From a phage, in the sequence record PZ379549.1: a stretch of DNA of 46,532 nucleotides, one strand, 5' to 3'. The notes under the pieces are model-generated. The model saw only the letters and a program-made list of their open reading frames with translations. It was not told the DNA's origin and ran no database searches. Of this stretch, positions 100 through 28,585 are shown piece after piece. The position numbers were made by a program, and so were the translations under genes. Positions within the stretch are counted from its first letter, which is position 1. Each line of letters opens with the position of its first letter.

Positions 100-585
100 A
101 TGTTTAAATATTTGTTTGATTATGATGGAATGAAATTGATATGGAAAAACCCAACATCACCTAGATTCACAAAGGGCGACGTTGCGGGAACTAAGCATAA
201 GAGAGGATACATTCAAGTTTGCTTTAATAGGAAGCTATACCTTGCTCATAGGATAATATGGGAGATGCATCATGGCGAGATACCTGAAGGGATGCAGATT
301 GACCATGTAAATCAGGACAAATCAGATAACAGGATTTCAAACCTAAGGCTAGTCACGCAGCAGGAAAACAAAAAGAACAAACCAAAGCAAGTAAGAAACT
401 CTAGCGGAGTTAATGGTGTATCTTGGAATAAATCAAATGGAAAATGGCAGGTAAGGATAGGTGTAGATGGAAAAGATGTTCATCTTGGGTATTTTGATAA
501 CATTTCAGACGCTAAAAAAGCAAGATTCGATGCTGACTTTAGATTTAAATACCATGAAAATCACGGTAACAAAAAGCGCCAGTAG
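100..585 (+). CDS. HNH homing endonuclease with AP2-like DNA-binding domain (free-standing)
   Basis: 161-aa ORF; HNH-type block DHVNQDKSDNRISNLRLVTQQEN followed by AP2-like block GVSWNKSNGKWQVRIGVDGKDVHLGYF; antisense between tail chaperone and tape measure genes; paralog at 28631-29110. Confidence 0.7.
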   Translation: MFKYLFDYDGMKLIWKNPTSPRFTKGDVAGTKHKRGYIQVCFNRKLYLAHRIIWEMHHGEIPEGMQIDHVNQDKSDNRISNLRLVTQQENKKNKPKQVRNSSGVNGVSWNKSNGKWQVRIGVDGKDVHLGYFDNISDAKKARFDADFRFKYHENHGNKKRQ

Positions 586-599: not shown

Positions 600-713
600 A
601 TCTCTCATCATATCTAAGGGCTTTAGCTTCCAGCACCCTGATATCGTTAAGTACCATTTCGTCTATCATCTGACTTCGTAAACATCAAACAAGAAAATTC
701 AAGGCAGTTGTAA

Positions 714-1007
714 TCAAGACCTGTGGCGCCGCATGTACCAACCCTCCACTGAGTAGACATGGCGCAGTACAAATCCCAACTTTGCATCATATGCCTCATC
801 GAAGTATAACTCTTCAGGCTCCTCACCGTCATAGTCTGATCTTTTCATTCCAATCGCTTCGAGTTCAGCGTCAGTTGGTGGTGATTGGTACTGCAAAAAT
901 ACAGCGCGCCTTAAATTTTTACCCTTTGTCCCGCTAACGCCTTCATGTATGAATCCATTAATGACGGAACTGCGGCAGGGAAAAGGTTCGCGAACTCTTC
1001 TACGTTC
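714..1007 (-). CDS. -1 frame extension of tail assembly chaperone (gpT-like part of a G-T fusion)
   Basis: -1 frame open from 1007 to stop at 714, overlapping the 3' end of the chaperone ORF; acidic C-terminal segment; position between major tail protein and tape measure. Confidence 0.4.
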   Translation of the reverse strand, partial: ERRRVREPFPCRSSVINGFIHEGVSGTKGKNLRRAVFLQYQSPPTDAELEAIGMKRSDYDGEEPEELYFDEAYDAKLGFVLRHVYSVEGWYMRRHRS

Positions 1008-1304: not shown

Positions 1305-1964
1305 TTATACCAGTTCAGAAGCTACAGAACTCAGCCTACCACGGATAGATACTGCGATGGATACCGTTTCGATTTCGTTGACACCAATGCTAGGGGTGTC
1401 GTTGAAAGCGATAGTGCCAGACTGAAGGCGCATCTCACTAGCGCGAGGTACGAACAGACGAATAGCAACAACAGTACCAGCTTCGTCATAGTTACGCAGA
1501 ATCGGATATACCGGGTTGGTGTATTCGTGCGCAAACGTGTAGGTGTTGGTTACCGCAGACTTATAAGTTGGAATCTGCTGCTCACGATCATCAGATAAAC
1601 ACTGGAAGTTAACGAACTGCTGTTCGCCGCCATCAGTGGATACGTCCTGAACACAAGGAACTTCAAACCAAGTAAGAATCTTAACAACTTCACCAGTTAA
1701 GCCAGCTGGGAACTTAGTGGTGTTGGAGGTATCAATACCTTCAACAGTTACGGTTGAACCAGATACCTCGGTAACGCGAACTTGCTTATCAGCCAGCAGG
1801 GTCGAAGCTGAGCTGGTAAATAGCAGGTAATCACCGCGTGCAATATCAGCAACGCTGGACAAAGTTAAAACAGGAGTAACAGCATTGGAAATTGCAGTTA
1901 CGTCGATAGCAGCTCCGCGAGAGCCTTCTACGAACACCTGGGTGCCGTTTGATAAGTGAGCCAT
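1305..1964 (-). CDS. major tail (tube) protein
   Basis: 219-aa ORF with AAGGA RBS; immediately upstream of G/GT chaperones and followed by strong terminator. Confidence 0.6.
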   Translation of the reverse strand: MAHLSNGTQVFVEGSRGAAIDVTAISNAVTPVLTLSSVADIARGDYLLFTSSASTLLADKQVRVTEVSGSTVTVEGIDTSNTTKFPAGLTGEVVKILTWFEVPCVQDVSTDGGEQQFVNFQCLSDDREQQIPTYKSAVTNTYTFAHEYTNPVYPILRNYDEAGTVVAIRLFVPRASEMRLQSGTIAFNDTPSIGVNEIETVSIAVSIRGRLSSVASELV

Positions 1965-1979
1965 GTATTTTTCCTTTTG

Positions 1980-2381
1980 TTAGTCTAGACGAACATAAAA
2001 ACGAACCGGGATAAACCACCCAGACTTGGATTTGATAACGGGGTTAACAACTCCAGACTCATAAATGGTCCCGCTGTCAAGCATTGTACCATCAACGATA
2101 GATTCTGCCAATTTATTAGCGATTTGTCTGGGCCTGTCAATTCCAGTACCAGGACTGAAGAATACTGAAATTTGAACCATGCCTACGTAGTATTTGCACT
2201 TCCTGCTTAATCCGTAGGTTACGGTGTCAACCTCTGTATAGTCGTACTTAAGCCAGATTGATCCATCGGCAGGAGGAGTAAACTTACAGTTCTCCCAAGC
2301 GACTGGATATCTGACCGGAAATTCATTTACCAACAAATCGTTGACGAATTTCCTTGCTGCTAATGATAATTCATATTGCAC
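1980..2381 (-). CDS. putative tail terminator / neck protein
   Basis: 133-aa ORF between neck block and major tail protein; function inferred from position only. Confidence 0.35.
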   Translation of the reverse strand: MQYELSLAARKFVNDLLVNEFPVRYPVAWENCKFTPPADGSIWLKYDYTEVDTVTYGLSRKCKYYVGMVQISVFFSPGTGIDRPRQIANKLAESIVDGTMLDSGTIYESGVVNPVIKSKSGWFIPVRFYVRLD

Positions 2382-3927
2382 GACGTAGCCTCCTCTACAG
2401 CTTCCTGGAAATACCTGCCCAACCTTGCTTGCACCACGCCAAGAACGCCAGCCGGAGCCTGATTCGAAGCCCCATACTCAAGGTCAGCAGGCGTAATCAA
2501 GCCTGTTAGTTATGTAGATAACACTTTGTCGCTGGTGAATTAGCCACAGCTCGAGCTTGCCTTGCCAGATACCTTTTTGTATGCTCCACCTGTTTTGATC
2601 GTAATCATTCAGAGACTGAGCTGAGCTGGGGAGTTCGCTGTAATCTGCCAGTTAGCCTTAAACCTACCAGTATCAACAGGCGATAAATCCACGATGGCGT
2701 TAGCAGCCTTAATTACCGTGTCGGCAGACAACAATATCAGAGAAGTTATCATCAGCTCTATCAATCCAATCAGCAATAGCTATTCGTCAAAGGTAGCCAA
2801 CACCACCAATATTTCTAGCCATAGGTAGCCACCCTCCTTAGAATTGGTCTGTAAGCCAACTACTAGTTCCTGTTGGTTTGACTGGCCTCGGGTCGACTAC
2901 AGTGTAAGTTTCATCTTCAACTATAATCCTGATAGCCCTGCAAGATTGCGGACTTCAGACAGTGAAAATTCCACGCTTGTCACCAAACTGGATATATTCG
3001 CCATCAATATCTCTGCGTTTTAATCTCCCTCACCAAGCCCCTTGATTGAAATGCAGTTGCCGCCAGCTACAGGAACCTCAACGCCGTCAACGATTTCGAC
3101 ACCATCCTTTACCAGTATTCATCTCGTGAATGTACCATCTGCCATCACTAAAGATAGTTGATGCCCGTGCGCATTAATTGATTCTACTTGGGAGTAATTC
3201 ATTGGCAACCGCACTCACCGCCAGCAGCGGACGTAATCAAGCCAAATCCGCCGCCTTTCTTGCGCAGGAGATTCCTAGTAAAGTGCGGCCCCACGGCGTA
3301 GCTGATCAATGATGACCTTGAGTTTGCGAGGTGGATATCATAAGCTGATAGAAAATTCACCGCTCAGCGGAGTAACTTGCCACCTTCTATGGCCATATAT
3401 CATCCAGCGACTTCATTCTCGCCCTTAAGCGCGCCATCAAGAAAGGCATCATGTGCAGATGTGTATAGTCCGACAGCGCTTTATAAGCATCATGCACCAA
3501 ACTTACTGGTCGCAGATGTATAGACTTAGCTAACTCAAGCCATACGTCCAGCGATTCGTCATCTGGAATATTCTTAAGAGCAGGAACCAGCGACTTGCAT
3601 AAAGGCTAATGCTTGTATCGTTCATAAAACCTCCATACAATAAACGGACGCCGAAGCGCCCTGTTTGGTTATTTGTACTCGTTGACCAGTCTCAGCCTCG
3701 GCAGATGGTTTTCGGTTCTTTGCGCTTATATTCTTGCTAACAACTTCTTGCGACGATTTGTTTGGTTGCCTTGGTGTCACCCTCAACCTGGTGAGTTGAC
3801 CCTCTGCGATTAAACGCTTGAGCCCAGTCGCAAATTACCTCAACCTCGAATGAGTGTCACCAGGCAAATATTTCTCACCTTTGTAAACGATAATCGTGCA
3901 CGCTCCAGTGTGTTCTAAACGAATCAT
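2382..3927 (-). pseudogene. frame-disrupted block of head-tail connector/neck genes (at least 4 genes)
   Basis: No ORF >=60 aa on either strand over about 1.5 kb; good RBS+ATG starts at 3927 (AAGGAG) and 3625 (GGAGG, ATGA overlap with upstream stop) each run into stops within 15-30 codons while adjacent frames continue protein-like sequence. Confidence 0.45.
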
Positions 3928-3993
3928 TTATTGCTCTCCTTTTATTAATTGATGGTTGATTATAACCCAACAAATCCATTTAGGTACAGACGT

Positions 3994-4016
3994 AAAAAAG
4001 CCCTCCATAAGAGGGC
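3994..4016 (-). terminator. rho-independent terminator after major capsid gene
   Basis: Minus-strand RNA GCCCUC-UUAUG-GAGGGC followed by UUUUUU. Confidence 0.65.
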
Positions 4017-4098
4017 GATTTATTACGCGAAGGTGATGCCTTTGATTACAGCCATACAGTCAGCGGGCGATAAACAATCAATCCCGTCGCTTTTGAGG

Positions 4099-4977
4099 TT
4101 ACCGGGTAGCGTGAAATGCAGGTCCTTCGGCTGAGCCAGGTAGCACGTTCGTCACTTCTGGAATCTCAATACTCAGGTTGAGCGGATCCTTTTCAAACGC
4201 CAGTGCAGCTTTGCCACCAGCACCGTCGTAGTTATCCAGGAATTGCAGATAACGCAGAGTGATGCCGGAGTTATTGGTTGCAAACAACTGCGCGTAGCTG
4301 ATAGAGGTGTTCGGCACCAGTTCTTGCATCAGGCGGCGAGCGGAAGCAGGCAGCAGGATATCAGTCGCGGTGTGAGCACCATTGGTAGCTGTTTCGATAG
4401 CATCGATAAGCGCTGTGATATCAGTCATAGCAGCAGCCGCGGAGTTCCACGTACCAGCAACAACCTGGTTAACGTTCGGACGCATTGAATACGCCAGGAA
4501 TGCCGTGCGGTGCAGAGCCAGACCATACCAGTTTATCGAGCAGGTTGTCATGCGCTTCAAAAGCCAATGCCTGTTTACGAGCTGACAGTGACTGACCAGT
4601 TGCTGCGCCAGCTTTGATTTCGTCGGTGGAAATCAGGAACGCGTTACCAAAACGGAAAACTTTGCCTTGCTTCTCGGTCATGAACGCATCAACCAGCGGC
4701 AAGGTCATCAGAGTAATCAGCGATAATCTGAGCAATTACCAACACCATCAAACTCTGGATATTCGAAATACTTCGCGTGAGCCAGGAATTTCATTAGTTA
4801 CCGGGAAGATATTAACAACTGAGTTTTCTGCGATATTCTTTTTCGTAAGCGCGATGTCAGAGCTAGCGGTCAAGCTGGCTTAACGGTCCAGATACCAGCA
4901 GCATCAGCTTTATCTACACCCATTTGCTCAAGGTGAGCGGTGATTTTTGCTTGTTCTGCATCAAATTTAATGGCCAT
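4099..4977 (-). pseudogene. major capsid protein gene, interrupted by at least 3 frame changes
   Basis: ATG at 4977 (MAIKFDAEQAKITAHLEQMGVDKADAAGIWTVKPA then stop); capsid-like segments continue in other frames (ORFs 4469-4735 and 4099-4560); position between decoration gene and neck block. Confidence 0.55.
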
Positions 4978-5085
4978 TCTTGTTTATTCCTTTTCAGTTA
5001 GGTATGTACGAGTCAATTATACACGACTTTGTGGTTGTTACAATAGCATCATACATGAGGCTTAAATCTGGATGGCAAAATACAC

Positions 5086-5129: not shown

Positions 5130-5627
5130 TTACTTCTGCTTAACCTGAACTTCTACCAGAGGACCATCAACGCTATCACCTTGAGTTGGCATTGCGCCAT
5201 CTGCGGTTGCTGCGGGAATGAATCCGCCAGCGAATGTCCAGCCAGTTGCCACTCCGCCAGCTGCTGCGTCTGCAACAACTACGCCAGTTGAATCCACCAA
5301 AACGGCAATACCGAAGTTTGGCGCTACTGTAAGGTTAGTGCGCATCCAGATTCGGCCAGCGGTCATTACGTTAACAGCCTCTTTCACTTTAGCGGTGCCA
5401 CCTGGAGTCTCGTAGTGAGAACGAACAACTACGCCATAAGCCGCGTTTGCAGCAATACCAGTTGCAACAACGGATTTGTGACCATCAACTAACGGTTCTA
5501 GCGTAGATACTCTAACAGCTACACCAACCGGAATTGCATCGCTGCCGCCAACCACGCAAGCTCCGTCGATGTTATACAGAGAAGTATCAGCCACCATACC
5601 TGCCAGTGCTACAGAACGAATTGCCAT
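5130..5627 (-). CDS. putative head decoration / cement protein
   Basis: 165-aa Gly/Ala/Val-rich ORF between scaffold/protease and major capsid genes, flanked by terminator. Confidence 0.45.
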   Translation of the reverse strand: MAIRSVALAGMVADTSLYNIDGACVVGGSDAIPVGVAVRVSTLEPLVDGHKSVVATGIAANAAYGVVVRSHYETPGGTAKVKEAVNVMTAGRIWMRTNLTVAPNFGIAVLVDSTGVVVADAAAGGVATGWTFAGGFIPAATADGAMPTQGDSVDGPLVEVQVKQK

Positions 5628-5674
5628 GTATCTATCTCCTTACTTTTTAATTTTTGCTAAACGAGCGCGCGGGT

Positions 5675-6748
5675 CTAATTTCTTAGGCTGCGTCGGCAGC
5701 TATCAGATTTGTCGGAAGCTGCGGTTGCCTTGCGAACTTCAGCCATTTTATCAGAATCTTTGGCAATGTCGAACGCTGCATCGATGTATGCGTCGGACTT
5801 CTCGGAAACATCAAGGCCGGAAACTTCTTTAACGTATAATACCTTAATGCCTTTAGCATCCAGGCCATCAGTCTTAACACCAGCTTCAGTGGCTACAGTA
5901 ACCAGAGCGGCAAGTGCTTCAGCGTCAGCTTTGGCAGCTTTGACTGCTTTCTCGATTTCAGCGGGCATTGCGTCTACTTTGGCTTTCAGTGCGTCACGCT
6001 CAGCTTCGATGGAATCAACCTTAGCTTTCTGTGCTTCAACAGCGGAGTTAATTTTGGAGATGTGGTCTGCAACCTCTTTAGACACCTCAACTTCAACAGA
6101 GTCAATCTTAATCTTAACTGTCATTTTGTTTTCCTTAGTATTTAAATCAACGTTGTCAGTATACGGGTTTTCTTGCTGCCCGTCCATATTTAGCTTAGCA
6201 ATTCCAGCCCTACCCCTGAAGACCATAGCTAAATGGTTTACCTTAATGTCTCTCTGGATTGCGTCGAACTCTTGCCAGTCAGGGGGTATATCCAAACCCT
6301 GCGTGTTGTCAGTCCTAAGAATGTACTTACCAGTTGCCGGGTCGCCCCAACCTGGAGTTTCATCAAGAACTGCCGAGTAACCTACAGATAATTCCTTAGC
6401 GTTACCTGAGCGAGCCTCGTCAATAGCTTCTTGAGAGTATACGACAATTGGCGCAATTACCGTACTTCCTAGAGCCTCAGCTTTACCAGTTACCGAGCCG
6501 ACCACTACGTCTTTAGCGTTATCGGAGTTTACAAAGACGTGGTCAAGAGTCATTGGCTTACCCTGGTAACTGGCTAGCGACTCCTCTTTGAAGACTTCTT
6601 CTGCTGGCCTGAACTCTCGAACAGTCGAACCATCCTCTGTGAAATAAACCTGCACACCAACCCTTGCTACTACTGGCGTATCGACGAGAAAACCATTCTC
6701 GTCAATGGTGGCTTTGAATGTTGCTGTATCAAAGCGATTCTTATACAT
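5675..6748 (-). CDS. putative prohead protease / scaffold protein
   Basis: N-terminal globular part plus C-terminal coiled-coil (KAKVDSIEAERDALKAKVDAMPAEIEKAVKAAKADAEALAAL); ATG 6748 with GAGGAG RBS preferred over GTG 6763. Confidence 0.45.
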   Translation of the reverse strand: MYKNRFDTATFKATIDENGFLVDTPVVARVGVQVYFTEDGSTVREFRPAEEVFKEESLASYQGKPMTLDHVFVNSDNAKDVVVGSVTGKAEALGSTVIAPIVVYSQEAIDEARSGNAKELSVGYSAVLDETPGWGDPATGKYILRTDNTQGLDIPPDWQEFDAIQRDIKVNHLAMVFRGRAGIAKLNMDGQQENPYTDNVDLNTKENKMTVKIKIDSVEVEVSKEVADHISKINSAVEAQKAKVDSIEAERDALKAKVDAMPAEIEKAVKAAKADAEALAALVTVATEAGVKTDGLDAKGIKVLYVKEVSGLDVSEKSDAYIDAAFDIAKDSDKMAEVRKATAASDKSDSCRRSLRN

Positions 6749-12543: not shown

Positions 12544-12775
12544 AAAGGCTATTCCCATTCTGATCATGGCCCACGCGCCCTCGTCGATAGCCCGCTATCC
12601 ACACAAACTTGTCTCGTGCGATTAGTCGTCGAATACCGGCCCCCACATCTTGAGTGATCAGCGCCGCCACTACCTTATCATCTTTCTTCTTTGCGCCAAG
12701 TTTGCCGTACTCTTCATTCAGCTTATCAGCCTGGCGCTTGACTGCGTTAAAGTATGCGTCGTTTAATCCGAACAT
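12536..12775 (-). CDS. hypothetical protein
   Basis: 79-aa ORF, start ATG overlaps upstream stop (TAATG). Confidence 0.35.
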   Translation of the reverse strand: MFGLNDAYFNAVKRQADKLNEEYGKLGAKKKDDKVVAALITQDVGAGIRRLIARDKFVWIAGYRRGRVGHDQNGNSLYE

Positions 12776-15445: not shown

Positions 15446-15530
15446 TTTCGTTTTCCTTTGTGCCTCTCGTTTCGATGAGATAATTATGCCATCCATGGCA
15501 TTATATGCGTTAGGCAAAAAGTGCTATTTC
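15446..15530 (-). promoter_or_regulatory. box-hairpin-(-10)-leader unit
   Basis: Variant box 15510-15530, hairpin GCCATGGATGGC, ATAATTAT, CTCATCGAAACGAG. Confidence 0.4.
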
Positions 15531-16642: not shown

Positions 16643-16743
16643 TCATTGCAAATTCTGCAACAATCAAAAACATCATTGCATTCGATGCAATATTGCTATA
16701 TGTGCAATAATGATGATGAATCATTGCAATAGCTGCAACAATC
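16643..16743. promoter_or_regulatory. operator/iteron-like array of TTGCAA-family sites
   Basis: 23-bp direct repeats TCATTGCAA-N4-TGCAACAATC at 16643-16665 and 16721-16743 flanking inverted repeat ATTGCAT-tcg-ATGCAAT at 16675-16691. Confidence 0.4.
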
Positions 16744-16755
16744 TATAAATCCAAC

Positions 16756-16830
16756 GAATAGCACTTTTTGCTAATGCACAATCATTAGTAAGTTGCTACT
16801 ATGTATTCATCGAAACGGTGCTGGACTCTG
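16756..16830 (+). promoter_or_regulatory. box-(-10)-leader unit at head of rightward small-ORF cluster
   Basis: Variant box 16756-16776, then TATGTATT, CATCGAAACGG. Confidence 0.35.
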
Positions 16831-18700: not shown

Positions 18701-18760
18701 TAATGCATTATAAGCGGCTATTGATATAATGGCCGCTCAGAAACAATGCGGAGAGAAGTA
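18686..18760 (+). promoter_or_regulatory. box-hairpin-(-10) unit
   Basis: Variant box 18686-18703, hairpin GCGGC..GCCGC enclosing TATAAT. Confidence 0.4.
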
Positions 18761-20023
18761 ATGTTTGATTTCAATGAAGATAAACTATCTGTTGAGCAAG
18801 TTATGGCGATCGCTGCCAATGACAACCTACCACCGCTTCGCGTGGCTATTAATGCCAATGGCTATCGACAGTCTCAATCGTTCTGGAAAGCACCTGTCGA
18901 GATTGATACAGGTAATGATAAGTATCCAGTAATCTCACTCGGTAATGATATTGATGTTGTTGGTAAGCTATCGGCTAATATCGCTCGCTCGGTTCAGTTC
19001 CCTGAGTCGTCAGCTTACATGCACTTTCTTGGTTGTGTTTCTGCTGCAATGCTTGGGCGTTTTACTGTCGAGTATCATGGAACCCAACAGCCAACATCTT
19101 TGTACGTGGTAACAAGTCAGCCGCCTTCAACTGGTAAATCAGCCATTAACTCGCTATCAATTGCGCCGATGATTGCTGAGACTGAGCGGTTGAATGAAGT
19201 ACGTAAACGTGATCGAAAAAAGATTATGGCTAAACTGTCCGCTCTGGCTAAAGAGATGAAGCAGGAGAAATCACCTTCTGAAATGGCTTCACTTTTTGAG
19301 GAGAAGGAGGATTTAGAGGAGAAGCTCGAGAAGCTATGCGATATAGTATTCCCTGTCTCCGATACTACTCCGGAAGGTCTTGCGCGAATCAACAATCGCC
19401 AGGGTAATTTTGCGGTAATCTCTGATGAGGCTACTAGCGTCAACTCACTGTTAGGCATGACTTACGGTGATGGCTCGAAGAAAACGAACAGCGAGCTCGT
19501 GCTGAAAGCATGGGATGCAGGTAATGTGTCAATTGCCCGTGCGAACGCAGAAAATAACATGAGCTTTGTGGCTATGGGATGCATCTCCGTAATTGCTCAG
19601 GATGAAACAATCAATGCCATTATGAATGCTGGTGCGCGTGGTATTGGTGTATCTGAGCGTTTCCTTCTGGTGCGTGAAAAATCATTTCTTGGCGACCGTG
19701 TATTTGTTGATGAAAATGGTGATTCAACCTATGAGGCTATTGATGGCGGCCTGAAAGCAGACTATTTCCGTCTTGTTCATGAGATTATGAATGAAGTTGA
19801 AGTGAAACTTACTGTAAGCGCGTCATCAATGCGTTACCTTAACCGCGCTCGTCAAGAGATGGAGCCTCATCTTGGTGATGGTGGCAAGTATTCTCACACA
19901 ATGTTGCGCGGTGCTCTTGGTAAGTTTGATAAGCAAGCAATCCGCATCGCTTCTGTTCTGCACGTAATTCGTAACTGGTTCTCACCAGCCGGATCCAGCC
20001 CTCAAGAAGTCAAGAGAGATTGA
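18761..20023 (+). CDS. P-loop NTPase, DUF3987-like (replication-associated?)
   Basis: Walker A-like SQPPSTGKS and Walker B-like FAVISDEATS; ATG 18761 with GGAGAGAAG RBS (track start 18746). Confidence 0.45.
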   Translation: MFDFNEDKLSVEQVMAIAANDNLPPLRVAINANGYRQSQSFWKAPVEIDTGNDKYPVISLGNDIDVVGKLSANIARSVQFPESSAYMHFLGCVSAAMLGRFTVEYHGTQQPTSLYVVTSQPPSTGKSAINSLSIAPMIAETERLNEVRKRDRKKIMAKLSALAKEMKQEKSPSEMASLFEEKEDLEEKLEKLCDIVFPVSDTTPEGLARINNRQGNFAVISDEATSVNSLLGMTYGDGSKKTNSELVLKAWDAGNVSIARANAENNMSFVAMGCISVIAQDETINAIMNAGARGIGVSERFLLVREKSFLGDRVFVDENGDSTYEAIDGGLKADYFRLVHEIMNEVEVKLTVSASSMRYLNRARQEMEPHLGDGGKYSHTMLRGALGKFDKQAIRIASVLHVIRNWFSPAGSSPQEVKRD

Positions 20024-20033
20024 ACTGGATACA

Positions 20034-20246
20034 ATGCAGGAAGCGGTTATGATTTTCAACGAACTAAGCAAGACTTATTTATCATCCGCTAGTGCTGCTG
20101 GTCATGCTGGTGACAATGCCGAGATGAACAAGCTGGTTGATATCCTGATTAAGCAGGGCAAGAATGGTAAAGGTGTTGTTGGTGTTCGCTCGTTGTATGA
20201 GGCTGCACGCAAGGTTAAACCTTTTGAAGCTCAGGCTGGAATGTAA
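20034..20246 (+). CDS. hypothetical protein
   Basis: 70-aa ORF. Confidence 0.4.
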   Translation: MQEAVMIFNELSKTYLSSASAAGHAGDNAEMNKLVDILIKQGKNGKGVVGVRSLYEAARKVKPFEAQAGM

Positions 20247-20347
20247 TGACTCGCATTAAGGACCACTTGATTCCTATGCTTGATGAGAAAAACTACACAT
20301 GCCTGATTGGTGATAAAATTTACATTAATCCACGATTGCTGGGGTAA
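20246..20347 (+). CDS. hypothetical small protein
   Basis: 33-aa ORF between two overlapping-stop junctions. Confidence 0.25.
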   Translation: MTRIKDHLIPMLDEKNYTCLIGDKIYINPRLLG

Positions 20348-25590: not shown

Positions 25591-26007
25591 CTTATCATCT
25601 CTGCGAATGCCGCAAGAAAACCCTCTCTTCCATAAGCCACCGCTGCGAAACCGCCTGATTCCCTTACGCTTTTTAGGAATGACTTTTGCTCATTGCTAAC
25701 TGGGCTTGCTTGCGTTTTACCAGCCCTCTTTAACTCTATGGCGCCAAATGGATAACCGCCACGCAATGACTCAGGTATCAGAAATAAGCAGTCTGACACA
25801 CCTTTGAGAAGCCCCTTGGCTTGGTCTTTTCTTGCTTGACCAATGCTCTTTTTATTGATTCGTTAACTCGTGTGCCAGTAAACAATCTGCGGATAGTTGA
25901 TATTTCACCCAATCAGAGCAGAAGATTTGTTCATCGTCTTCCTTTGGGCATGACTTCACCGGTCCGCCATAGAACTCGAGGTAATCACCTTTGTCTGTGA
26001 TTTTCAT
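25584..26007 (-). pseudogene. VRR-NUC-type nuclease gene with about 3 frame changes
   Basis: ATG 26007 with GGAGG RBS gives EDDEQIFCSDWVKYQ; continuation YPQIVYWHT, NESIKRALVKQEKTKPRGFSK and GVSDCLFLIPESLRGGYPFGAIELKRAG...NEQKSFL lie in three other frames within about 150 nt. Confidence 0.45.
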
Positions 26008-26008
26008 A

Positions 26009-26263
26009 TCAATCCTCCATCGTAAATGATTTGTTGGCGATAATATCTTGCGACTTCTGATTCTTGCGGTGCGTAATCCTTAGCGGCGCACGGAAAAGAT
26101 GTGCATTTGTCATAATCATTTTAGCATTACGCAATCTGCCAATCCTAAAAGCCTCAGTCCTGTTCTCGATGTGAGTTGAGCAAAACGCCTTCCATTTGAC
26201 AGAACAAACACGATGGTCTGACTCCGGGAAGAATGTTTCATAAGCTCGGAATCTTGTCACCAC
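26009..26263 (-). CDS. hypothetical ORF (possible frame-shifted helicase tail or separate small gene)
   Basis: 84-aa ORF overlapping helicase 3' end. Confidence 0.25.
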   Translation of the reverse strand: MVTRFRAYETFFPESDHRVCSVKWKAFCSTHIENRTEAFRIGRLRNAKMIMTNAHLFRAPLRITHRKNQKSQDIIANKSFTMED

Positions 26264-28006
26264 TGTGAGCCATTACCTCATATGAAGCAACGATCCCTGA
26301 CTGGTTCTTTGTTAACCCAATCTTGAAGTCATAAACTCGCAACCAGTCCCCCTTACGATACATTTTTCCTGATAACTTAGCATTCGGGTCTATGAGCATC
26401 TCACCACAGCATCTGCAATTCTTAGCTGCAATATCATTCTTCTCACCGCATCCTTTCTTAATGATAGCTTTGGTCTGTGGGTCCGCTATATCTTCACACA
26501 GTCTAAACTGAAAGAAGTGCTCACAGCGCTTCCAGTCAATTACGTTATTGCAGCGCCTGGCTAATTGAGAGTTCACATAAGAGCATGCCGGACAGATTCT
26601 TGGCTTATCACCACGCTTTCTTGCTGACCTAAATTTCTGGTCTTGTACCTCTTCTATAATTGGGTCGAAGTAAAGTTCAGCCATATCATCAAGCGTTCCA
26701 GCAAAATCAAGAACAACATGGTCATCTTTTACCATTCCAGCTTCTTTGTGCTTCTTCTTAAGGATACGCATACCACGACCAAGCAACTGAATGAGTAGAG
26801 TAATGCTACCAACCTTCCTCAGGATAATGCTTGTATCCCACGGGGGGCAGTTTACGCCAGTTGTGAGGCAACCAATCTGAAATATGAACTTATATTCTCC
26901 GTTGGCTGCCTTCTCAAGTATCTCTCTACGCTTCTTCTCACCAGTGGAGTTGGTAACTATCGCCCAAGTAACACCTTCTAGGAAGTGCGGCTGCCGCCTC
27001 CATCGCAATGCTGTTTGCCAGCGCAAGTTACCAATGCAGCATTCCTTGTTTCCATAAACTTAGCAGCAAATCCCATTATCTTTTGTGTCATCGTTTGGTT
27101 TTCGTGAATCTTTGCAGCCATCGCATCCATTTCTTTCTTGCTGAAGTCCTTAACCCCATCACTTCCATCAGGAGTGAACTCACTAAGGTCGTAGCCCAAA
27201 TCACCAACTTCACCGTAGACAGTAGGAACAACGAACCCCAAGTCAACAAGGTAGCTGGTTGGCACTTGCATTACAGTTTTGCGCCAGAATCCACGGACAT
27301 TTGGGTTACTAACTACAATGTGGTCGTTGTTACGGTACGGGCTGCCAGTCAAACCGAAGATGCGTAGTTCGCGACCATACTTCTCTTTGCAGCGTCTCTT
27401 CATCTCAGTAATGATTAGCGTGTACTGCGCACGACCAGTTCCGAGCAATCCGGTATTCACTCCATCCTTGAAAACCATCTCACCCTTCTTCGTGCTCATC
27501 TGCTCGAATGTTTCCTCGTTCTCTTCAGCTTCTACGATATCCATATGGTCAACCATATGACATTCATCTATCGCAATAACGGCAGGAACATAGTCACCAA
27601 GGCCCTTAAACAAGCCGTTAGCAGCCGTGCCCTCACTAGCCACTATGGTTGGGTAGTAAACTGATTTAACGTTAAGGCCAGCGCAATAGACGCTATTACG
27701 GATGCCGAAGTTACGAAGCTCTTCAGCGTTCTGGCTGATAATTTCTGACTGGCGAGAAAGCACCATGTAAGGAAGCCCAAGCTGTTCCATGCGCTTTCCA
27801 ATCATGGCAAGAATAATTGTCTTACCAGCAGATACAGACAGGTCTGCGATGAATGGGGCCTCGTACTTTCCAATAGCCTTCCCAATTGCATCAAATGTCA
27901 CACACTGGAATGGGTAAGGAGTGATTTCTCCAAACTGGTAATCTCTCTGAATCTGCTTAATCTTCTCTTGATCGAAGTTGGCTACTAAGCGCTCTACTGG
28001 AAGCAT
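26238..28006 (-). CDS. SF2 DEAH-box helicase with C-terminal Cys-rich region, one frame change near 26978-27026
   Basis: N-part ORF 26978-28006 has Walker A SAGKT and DECH; C-part ORF 26238-27026 has motif VI QLLGRGMR; the two overlap in different frames. Confidence 0.65.
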
Positions 28007-28102: not shown

Positions 28103-28492
28103 ATGTGTGAAATTGACAAGCGAACTATCAACGGCAATAACGGAACCATCCGCACGCAAGACAAGAAACAGCGCAAACGACCGTCAGGCTACTACGTATT
28201 GAAAGATGAAGTAAAGGCTGGGCTAAGAGCTCGTCTGGAGATGGTTCTTGACTTCTACGGCACGAAGGCCAATATCGCCAAGCAGTTAAATGTATCTCAC
28301 CAGACTGTAGAACAATGGTTTGATCGCGGTATGATTTCGGCTCGAGGCGCCCAGCGAGCACATAATGCGTACAAGAGAAATAAGGGAGGGTTCCGAGCTA
28401 CTTTCTGCCGACCAGACCTGCAATTTGACGGTAACGGTAAGCCTCTGACGCTTACGATGCAAGAAGCGCCACATGCTACGCGTGGTTACTGA
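28103..28492 (+). CDS. HTH DNA-binding protein (candidate regulator)
   Basis: HTH-like GTKANIAKQLNVSHQTVEQWF; first gene of rightward unit; a +1 frame continues 36 codons past the stop. Confidence 0.45.
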   Translation: MCEIDKRTINGNNGTIRTQDKKQRKRPSGYYVLKDEVKAGLRARLEMVLDFYGTKANIAKQLNVSHQTVEQWFDRGMISARGAQRAHNAYKRNKGGFRATFCRPDLQFDGNGKPLTLTMQEAPHATRGY

Positions 28493-28585
28493 GGCTGAAC
28501 TAGCAACTAAAGCCACCTTGTCGACTCGTGGCGCAAGAATAAGATTGCCAACGAAGCCGCACGAAAAGCTAAAGAGTAAATAATT

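Follow-up and report, generated by a model that had tools for sequence, protein, structure and literature searches.

Programmed frameshifting and translational bypassing are known in phages, for example the -1 frameshift of the tail-chaperone genes G/GT and the bypass in T4 gene 60, and in these systems the ribosome has to leave the written frame for a full-length protein to be made. The known cases have one site per gene, a defined slippery or take-off signal and conservation in relatives. Decaying defective-prophage and pseudogene regions also combine several frame-disrupting lesions with genes that can still be recognised, and in such regions the lesions include deletions together with nonsense and missense changes, accompanied by a relaxed codon-position bias. 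In bacteria and phages, indels that arise spontaneously are biased towards deletion and tied to repeats and homopolymers, and the Drexlerviridae are virulent phages. Among technical errors, the raw errors of PacBio-CLR reads are rich in insertions, yet deletions make up a substantial share of them. Apparent frameshifts and false pseudogenes result from indels introduced in assembly or consensus calling and from the collapse of neighbouring variants (PMC8445201; PMC12007338). Long-read and flow-chemistry sequencing errs mostly at homopolymers, with deletions among the errors (PMC12007338).

The window analysed here, a stretch of 46,532 nucleotides (sequence record PZ379549.1), comes from a phage that, judged from its sequence, is a T1-like (Braunvirinae, Rtp-like) coliphage. 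Its head-neck module is like that of the Braunvirinae (Rtp-like, Drexlerviridae) phages vB_Ec-G8, vB_EcoS_CEB_EC3a, phiA2-1 and Rtp in gene order and content, junctions and terminators. The shared order is protease, cement protein, major capsid protein (MCP), DUF7444, DUF4054 adaptor, Hc1, Neck1, tail terminator and major tail protein (MTP), and the nucleotide alignment shows 3.7 kb of collinearity with four annotated relatives. The relatives have plain open frames, whereas the window has a divergent neck allele carrying insertions. Five minus-strand head and neck genes between 2371 and 4977 (Neck1, Hc1, DUF4054 adaptor, DUF7444 and MCP; Table 1) have intact homologues in Braunvirinae coliphages, and not one of the five is a full-length open reading frame in the window, each being split across frames.

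A close examination of this block confirmed much of what the first-pass annotation had described. As it claimed, ORFs of at least 60 aa are missing from about 1.5 kb on both strands, namely from positions 2382-3948, and at 1567 nt this gap exceeds the window's next largest one (315 nt) five-fold. The vB_Ec-G8 proteins MCP, Neck1, Hc1, DUF4054 protein and DUF7444 match the block in pieces lying in different frames, and the MCP gene, said to survive only as fragments, is indeed found in 4-5 such pieces. The expression signals reported as intact can also be recognised, with RBS, start codons and the ATGA overlap at 3202-3199 readable in the block and terminators detected after the MCP gene (4016-4000), after the DUF7444 gene (3661-3646) and after the decoration gene (5111-5092).

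Table 1. Features of the frame-broken block and its flanks, with positions in the window and lengths compared with the relatives.
Feature	Position	Strand	Observation
Tail terminator gene	1980..2381	-	Intact, 0 insertions; PF13554
Tail-completion / Neck1 gene	2371..2822	-	452 nt vs 438 in relatives; 14 extra nt
Head-closure Hc1 gene	2815..3202	-	388 nt vs 372; 16 extra nt
DUF4054 head-tail adaptor-like gene ("virion structural protein")	3199..3625	-	427 nt vs 402; 25 extra nt
DUF7444-DUF4054 intergenic region	3645..3668	-	Two single-base insertions, at terminator 3661-3646
DUF7444 small gene	3669..3927	-	259 nt vs 246; 13 extra nt, 8 events
Non-coding DNA downstream of the MCP gene	3982..4008	-	Two single-base insertions; 4008 in the loop of terminator 4016-4000
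MCP gene	4023..4977	-	955 nt vs 942; 13 extra nt, 11 events
Cement/decoration protein gene	5130..5627	-	ORF intact; PF22758
Prohead protease/scaffold gene, C-terminus	5643..5702	-	Frame lost via 2-3 single-base insertions (about 5688, 5698, 5702)

The five genes contain about 58 frame-changing events with 81 extra nt, and four further extra bases are intergenic. All events are insertions of 1-4 nt and there are no deletions. This is consistent across the alignments used. The MAFFT alignment with four relatives placed 56 window-specific events between 2386 and 4877, 56 of 56 being insertions; the protein-guided frameshift alignment of the five genes gave 44 (+1) and 14 (+2) insertions, 3 codon insertions and 0 missing-base events; and pairwise blastn against phiA2-1 over kb 2-4 gave 68 insertions and 0 deletions. 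The sign test for 58 frame-changing insertions against no deletion gives P about 2^-58. The earlier estimate of "roughly ten or more indels" was thus right in that events are many, but its count was about five-fold too low and the events are insertions only rather than mixed. By length, the block has 36 insertions of one, 13 of two, 5 of three and 2 of four nt, and the multi-base ones are commoner than independent single insertions would yield.

Skipping the extra bases returns five full-length, stop-free proteins that match the intact orthologues, with PF09950, PF13262 and PF24231 covered end to end, in agreement with the earlier view that the block is real coding sequence. The Neck1 gene (7 x +1, 2 x +2 and 1 codon insertion) restores to a stop-free protein 88% identical to G8 Neck1, and the Hc1 gene (8 x +1, 4 x +2) to one also without stops and 76% identical to G8 Hc1. 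The DUF4054 gene has the densest insertion load in the block, and its restored protein covers positions 1-105 of the 105 in PF13262 (E = 9e-20). The restored DUF7444 protein matches PF24231 (E = 2e-19), and the underlying DNA of this gene is 93-97% identical to phage EC3a. The restored MCP, of 313 aa, covers positions 1-251 of the 251 in PF09950 and many database MCPs share 93-94% identity with it at 100% coverage. Its insertion events are grouped at 4877-4704 and 4135-4058, with a single one (4483) in the intervening 568 nt.

Mismatches at codon positions 1/2/3 number 16/9/105 in MCP and 14/5/67 in Neck1, and the intact neighbour MTP shows a like bias (21/14/82). No substitution noise accompanying the insertions is detectable in the restored ORFs, in which the third-position bias is intact and stops are absent. 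This bias indicates that the block was coding sequence under purifying selection until the insertions appeared, and the underlying head-neck allele, as read from its substitutions, is natural and selected. Natural decay of a pseudogene region was considered and rejected, as it requires mixed lesions and relaxed selection, while the block has only insertions and a third-position bias as strong as that of MTP.

The insertions bear no mark of selection or of a recoding signal. Their codon phase is uniform (12/11/10), the inserted bases are balanced (C11 G9 T7 A6), and no common motif or carry-forward pattern was found at offsets -6 to +6, with 20 trinucleotide contexts among the 36 single insertions. 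The first-pass annotation had suggested inspecting the homopolymer context of the indels, and the result is negative: homopolymers are avoided, the inserted base equalling a neighbour in 13 of 55 cases (24%) compared with 24 (44%) expected at random (P = 0.001), and no insertion extends a run of 3 or more. Two error types were rejected as candidates on these figures, namely homopolymer or flow-chemistry-type errors (454, Ion Torrent, Nanopore, PacBio CCS), given the avoided homopolymers and the lack of deletions, and a PacBio-CLR-like raw error profile, which cannot be reconciled with about 58 events that include no deletion.

The distribution of the insertions is patchy. Dense stretches (4877-4704 and 4135-2386) have about 29 insertions per kb, compared with one in the 568 nt at 4136-4703, and the intergenic density, terminator loop included, equals the coding density. 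The tail terminator gene forms a sharp boundary of the damaged zone, and the adjoining 1081 nt (1305-2385) have 0 insertions, although the dense-zone rate predicts about 31. A single extra base is found at position 5628, between the RBS and the ATG of the cement gene, and damage is also present at 5628-5702 and 616-791. Elsewhere in the genome the damage is again insertion-only, at about 0.4 per kb; outside the block there are about 19 unpaired 1-2-nt insertions and 0 unpaired deletions, with small clusters at 12627-12653, 16716-16777, 25867-25899, 26979-27002 and 28452-28524 and further scattered sites at 15505, 20004-20241, 21206 and 26252. The genes broken outside the block are both helicases, the endolysin, VRR-NUC, the tail chaperone and the protease C-terminus. 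The density within 2382-4977 is thus far above that elsewhere, as was claimed, but the damage is not confined to that block. A dependence of the insertions on divergence from a mapping or polishing reference was also tried and rejected: DUF7444, at 93-97% to EC3a, has 8 events, and MTP, 83-88% identical to anything, is clean.

From this pattern, it is very probable that the extra bases are spurious and were added in sequencing, consensus calling or data handling. A normal, selected Braunvirinae (Rtp-like) head-neck module would lie underneath, and a step between the DNA and the file would have added the insertions of 1-4 nt. The likeliest such step would be a base-calling or consensus procedure that retained extra or alternative calls rather than voting them out, for instance a consensus ignoring gap columns or one built from over-called low-quality single-pass reads. 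Steps of this kind would turn read-level noise into insertions only, with a density that varies between read-sized patches. The block holds what a consensus that keeps extra calls would leave, insertions unaccompanied by residual substitutions or deletions, and patchiness on a read-sized scale (a few hundred nt) is consistent with a density following local read quality or coverage. The locus also resembles described false frameshifts from assembly and consensus indel errors in its intact homologues, in breaks that vanish on single-base removal, in the many unrelated genes hit, in the lack of a selection signature and in its patchiness (PMC12007338; PMC8445201). Its error spectrum fits no common platform and differs from the published long-read and flow-chemistry spectra, which are mostly homopolymer-linked and include deletions, and the technical cause would be atypical here because deletions are lacking and homopolymers avoided.

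Two other technical origins would also give insertions only. The bases may stem from collapsed variants, two co-assembled phage haplotypes or the sample and a mapping reference, with both alleles of a SNP kept in tandem (A/T written as "AT"); false frameshifts are known to arise when neighbouring allelic variants are collapsed (PMC8445201). This predicts about 25% neighbour-equal insertions, close to the 24% observed; at several N-terminal MCP sites one relative has the "inserted" base at the adjacent column; and a synonymous-SNP reading is possible for 17 of 33 events compared with 11.4 expected (simulation, P = 0.03). That excess is only marginal, however, and natural SNPs fall mostly at third positions, so few insertions would be expected between codon positions 1 and 2, whereas the phases are 12/11/10. 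Insertion density also does not track divergence from any available relative, and no second haplotype is identifiable. We consider true SNPs rather unlikely; doubled "alleles" that are read-level miscalls beside the true base fit better and are folded into the preferred explanation of spurious bases, a version that stays alive because of the neighbour-avoidance statistic. Alternatively, the file may have been altered, on purpose or by accident, or generated in silico (spiked random insertions, a format or merging bug, or the output of a generative model), in which case the extra bases would be in no read and the picture would be a similar one. The roughly geometric lengths of 1-4 nt (36, 13, 5, 2), the uniform phase, the balanced base composition without a motif, and the fact that no exact protein or DNA of the window is on record except the tail terminator would all suit such an origin. 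A simple uniform inserter, on the other hand, should produce neighbour-equal bases in 44% of cases and not 24% (P = 0.001), and the read-sized patches and small clusters elsewhere resemble local read quality more than a designed block, which makes this origin unlikely; if true, it would lead to the same practical verdict as a sequencing or consensus artefact, that is, not biology.

The biological readings take the extra bases at face value. A defective genome (dead-end or helper-dependent) or one with insertion-biased damage may have been faithfully sequenced: the given sequence does contain the insertions and read-level error was not directly seen, the damage is concentrated in one module as after a localised event, and the allele is unique, with no intact twin contradicting it. 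About 75 insertions with no deletion and with homopolymers avoided are nevertheless unlike spontaneous indels, and we know of no natural process that gives such a number with no deletions and no extra substitutions. Since the substitutions record full purifying selection, all insertions would have to be essentially simultaneous if real. At least 11 essential genes would be broken, including both helicases and the endolysin, so that unaided replication to sequencing depth would be impossible; as written, a genome with these genes broken could not propagate. No resident defective copy was found in E. coli genomes and plasmids, and where decaying prophage regions accumulate mixed lesions, the block has insertions only and a strong third-position bias. 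Real mutations are thus very unlikely, and it is more improbable still that the bases were physically added to packaged or environmental phage DNA by a one-burst, insertion-only process (untemplated addition or repair, acting in patches) that left a head-neck hotspot in a dead genome. Between the two sources offered by the first-pass annotation, a defective genome or indel-prone sequence, the evidence favours faulty sequence, as the lesions are insertion-only, selection is not relaxed and other essential genes are hit, and it speaks against the defective genome. Recoding by programmed +1/+2 frameshifting, translational bypassing or removal of extra nucleotides from the mRNA would explain why all five proteins return when the extra nucleotides are skipped and why RBSs, starts and terminators are in place. 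It would require about 58 sites in 2.5 kb, each working at near-100% efficiency, and no slippery or take-off/landing motif is shared by them (20 trinucleotide contexts for 36 single insertions). In the relatives these proteins are encoded in plain open frames, and none of the block insertions is present in G8, phiA2-1, EC3a, N35, L009 or L010, in contrast to the known frameshift and bypass sites conserved in relatives. Recoding, whose probability we regard as negligible, is ruled out because the events fall without regard to codon phase and are found in non-coding DNA too (four are intergenic or in a terminator loop, where translation plays no part), which upholds the earlier judgement that it is very unlikely. 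A literature search found no paper on a Braunvirinae frameshift. Most likely, the frame breaks are neither mutations of a replicating phage nor a recoding system, and they would represent no real biological feature.

The underlying neck-gene allele, as restored here, is otherwise absent from databases. The cleaned block reaches at best 81% nucleotide identity to any of 50,697 phage records, and the neck genes at most 81% to any of 125 database phages. A protein-guided locus search for an insertion-free twin gave 88% aa identity at best, the restored MCP was compared with 5.8 billion proteins with a best identity of 93-94%, and exact-protein look-ups with the MTP, portal and cement proteins gave no match. 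Exact 41-mer, 30-mer and 35-mer matching in IMG/VR and JGI metagenome contigs returned neither an insertion-free nor an insertion-bearing copy, and no copy of the block is present in E. coli genomes and plasmids; an insertion-free copy of the same allele was thus not found in the phage, metagenome, E. coli or protein searches. An identical tail terminator protein is encoded on two ENA contigs, which carry intact, though divergent, neck genes.

These results have consequences for the use of the record. Automatic annotation will overlook the MCP and four neck genes, and at least six further genes will come out split. Divergence is overstated as well, the raw block being at most 84% identical to relatives, partly through about 85 bases that are very probably spurious. 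The error signature (insertions only, homopolymers avoided, patchy) provides a useful fingerprint for flagging faulty records. The restored proteins are usable approximations of a neck-gene allele without a close database relative, and the capsid and neck genes of the phage itself are almost certainly ordinary and intact.

The 46.5-kb genome belongs to a T1-like, Rtp-like coliphage (Drexlerviridae, subfamily Braunvirinae), with its structural genes on the minus strand. The closest database relatives are Escherichia phages ES and AN_ECEAS (~91-93% identity across most of the window), and the head and neck block at 2371-4977 reaches only 78-84% identity to ~96 phage records. Annotated relatives (vB_Ec-G8, hereafter G8; phiA2-1; CEB_EC3a, hereafter EC3a; and 2725-N35) share the order prohead protease, cement/decoration protein, major capsid protein (MCP), the small protein DUF7444, the DUF4054 "virion structural protein", head closure (Hc1), tail completion (Neck1), tail terminator and major tail protein (MTP), all as plain open frames. 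Searching the window with the G8 proteins by tblastn detected Neck1, Hc1, DUF4054, DUF7444 and MCP, each scattered over several reading frames. The ORF desert described in the first-pass annotation is real: positions 2382-3948 (1567 nt) hold no ORF of at least 60 aa on either strand, and elsewhere in the window no such gap exceeds 315 nt. The expression signals that it called intact are likewise legible, including start codons, ribosome-binding sites (RBSs), the ATGA overlap at 3202-3199, and rho-independent terminators 3′ of the MCP, DUF7444 and cement genes.

In a MAFFT alignment of window 1305-5000 with the four relatives, the window departs in length from all of them at 56 sites between 2386 and 4877, and all 56 are insertions (36 × 1 nt, 13 × 2 nt, 5 × 3 nt and 2 × 4 nt); at no aligned position is a base common to all four relatives absent from the window. 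Pairwise blastn against phiA2-1 likewise counts 68 insertions and 0 deletions in kb 2-4. A custom protein-guided alignment of the five genes to their G8 counterparts, in which both extra and missing nucleotides are permitted, required 44 (+1), 14 (+2) and three whole-codon insertions and no missing-nucleotide event, and the tail terminator and MTP needed zero frame corrections. The gene lengths are consistent with this count, with a surplus of 81 nt over the five genes and four further intergenic nucleotides at 4008, 3982, 3668 and 3645.

Positions, insertion sites and lengths of the genes considered (window coordinates)
Feature	Position	Strand	Insertion site	State	Length in window vs comparison (nt)
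MTP	1305-1964	-		intact	
Tail terminator	1980-2381	-		intact	
Neck1					452 vs 438
Hc1					388 vs 372
DUF4054					427 vs 402
DUF7444					259 vs 246
MCP					955 vs 942
Cement protein	5130-5627	-		intact	
Cement gene RBS-ATG spacer			5628	window-specific single-base insertion	
Protease C-terminus			5688-5702	broken by insertions	
Tail assembly chaperone	within 616-986	-	~664, ~791	broken by insertions	
527-aa helicase	18725-20344	+	20004, 20241	split by 1-2-nt insertions	
Endolysin			21206	broken by single-base insertion	
VRR-NUC nuclease			25899	broken by single-base insertion	
664-aa helicase	26012-28006	-	26252, 26979, 27002	split by 1-2-nt insertions	

When the extra bases are skipped in the protein-guided alignment, five full-length proteins without stops are regained, with identities to G8 of 88% (Neck1), 76% (Hc1), 68% (DUF4054), 86% (DUF7444) and 93% (MCP). 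Many database capsid proteins match the restored MCP at 93-94% identity over 100% of its length. This protein spans the whole PF09950 model, the restored adaptor (DUF4054) spans all of PF13262, and the restored small protein matches PF24231. Differences from relatives at codon positions 1/2/3 number 16/9/105 in MCP and 14/5/67 in Neck1, like those of the undamaged neighbor MTP (21/14/82). Because of this third-position bias and the restored full-length proteins, the allele beneath the insertions is judged a natural sequence under selection, on which the insertions are superimposed.

The neck allele is divergent from all available sequences (its best match reaches 81% in nucleotides across 125 phage records and 88% in amino acids in IMG/VR). 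Without its insertions, the segment 2386-3660 (Neck1, Hc1, DUF4054) is at most 81% identical in nucleotides to any of the 125 records, which share 85-95% identity among themselves, and it is a mosaic piece from an unsampled lineage. Of the sequences searched for, only the tail-terminator protein was found elsewhere, in two ENA metagenome contigs (ERZ28616444 and ERZ27280749, 100% identical), in which the adjoining neck genes are intact and only 67-85% identical to the window in nucleotides, a comparison that shows a recombination junction at about 2386-2500.

The single-base insertions fall evenly over the codon phases (12/11/10) and are balanced in composition (C11, G9, T7, A6). Insertions are as dense in intergenic DNA as in coding DNA, and one lies in the loop of the MCP terminator. 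No common motif surrounds them: 20 distinct trinucleotide contexts occur, and offsets -6 to +6 show no enrichment. Homopolymer context, a check proposed in the first-pass annotation, was examined, and homopolymer errors do not explain the insertions: 13 of 55 inserted bases match a neighbor, versus ~24 expected if random (P = 0.001), and no run of three or more is lengthened. They are also patchy. Two dense stretches (4877-4704 and 4135-2386) hold 55 insertions within 1.9 kb, the 568 nt between them hold one (Poisson P ~1e-6), and the stretch 2385-1305 (1081 nt) holds none (P ~1e-13), the expectations being derived from the dense-stretch counts. This patchiness is independent of divergence, as DUF7444 is 93-97% identical to EC3a yet carries eight events, and MTP, at 83-88% identity to any available sequence, carries zero.

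The phenomenon spans the whole genome, beyond the region first flagged. Outside the block there are ~19 unpaired window-specific insertions of 1-2 nt, backed by every relative covering each site, and only two deletions, each adjoining a compensating insertion; the claim of a far higher density in the block holds, at ~22-29 versus ~0.4 per kb. Both split helicases are single ORFs in relatives (527-539 and 664-675 aa). Small clusters at 12627-12653, 16716-16777 and 28452-28524, each with two or three single-base insertions inside 30-75 nt and with surroundings otherwise 80-97% identical to relatives, may be low-quality read ends; the 12627-12653 trio (net +3 nt) could alternatively be natural divergence. 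A separate observation in the tail module is an HNH_3 endonuclease ORF at 100-585 (+) (E = 5e-24; its C-terminus gives a weak AP2-like match), lying antisense between the tape-measure and chaperone genes, which looks like a homing-endonuclease insertion.

The first-pass reading, real coding sequence broken by indels through either faulty sequence or a defective genome, is supported, with faulty sequence strongly favored over a defective genome. Recoding, already judged very unlikely, is excluded, because ~58 sites without a motif, lacking in relatives and partly in non-coding DNA, cannot be programmed. A truly defective genome, faithfully sequenced, is very unlikely. Natural indels are biased to deletion and tied to repeats, and we know of no natural process giving tens of insertions, zero deletions and no added substitutions. 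The substitution pattern lacks relaxed selection, no resident copy was found in the E. coli genomes or plasmids searched, and sequencing depth would be out of reach for a molecule whose capsid, neck, endolysin and both helicase genes are all broken. What remains is that the extra bases arose in the course of producing the sequence.

False frameshifts have been documented to arise from indel errors and from collapsed variants (PMC12007338, PMC8445201). The usual long-read or flow-chemistry errors are homopolymer-linked and include deletions, which does not fit the spectrum here. Extra or alternative base calls may instead have been retained at some step, possibly by a consensus ignoring gap columns or from over-called low-quality single-pass reads; this would reproduce the observed pattern, with insertions only, in random phase, unlike the partner base and without leftover substitutions, at a density that would track local read quality. 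A two-haplotype version, in which both natural SNP alleles were kept, is unsupported, given the even codon phases and a synonymous excess that is no more than marginal (P = 0.03). In-silico alteration of the file would look similar, and the pattern does not tell it apart from a laboratory artefact; the significant avoidance of neighbor-identical bases speaks against a naive random inserter. Neither an insertion-free twin nor an independent insertion-bearing copy was found in phage records, IMG/VR, JGI metagenome contigs, E. coli genomes, plasmids or a 5.8-billion-protein collection.

Further records of this phage group may have quality problems. The sequences of PP134917 (Pseudomonas phage PsgS01F) and MG065688 (Campylobacter phage A110b) are Braunvirinae coliphage-like despite their labels, and PsgS01F agrees exactly with Escherichia phage vB_EcoS_UALMA_PCEc3 in length (44,679 bp) and in its scores in the cleaned-block search. 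Both host labels look doubtful. The annotation of phage IMM-001 (MF630922) is odd, with 98 features in 32 kb and many small overlapping ORFs, as is that of phage ES (OR466728), where product names are mismatched to gene positions and a helicase ORF has 575 codons versus 675 in G8.

The frame breaks are not a biological feature; their practical use lies in caution over record PZ379549.1 and in a recognizable error fingerprint.
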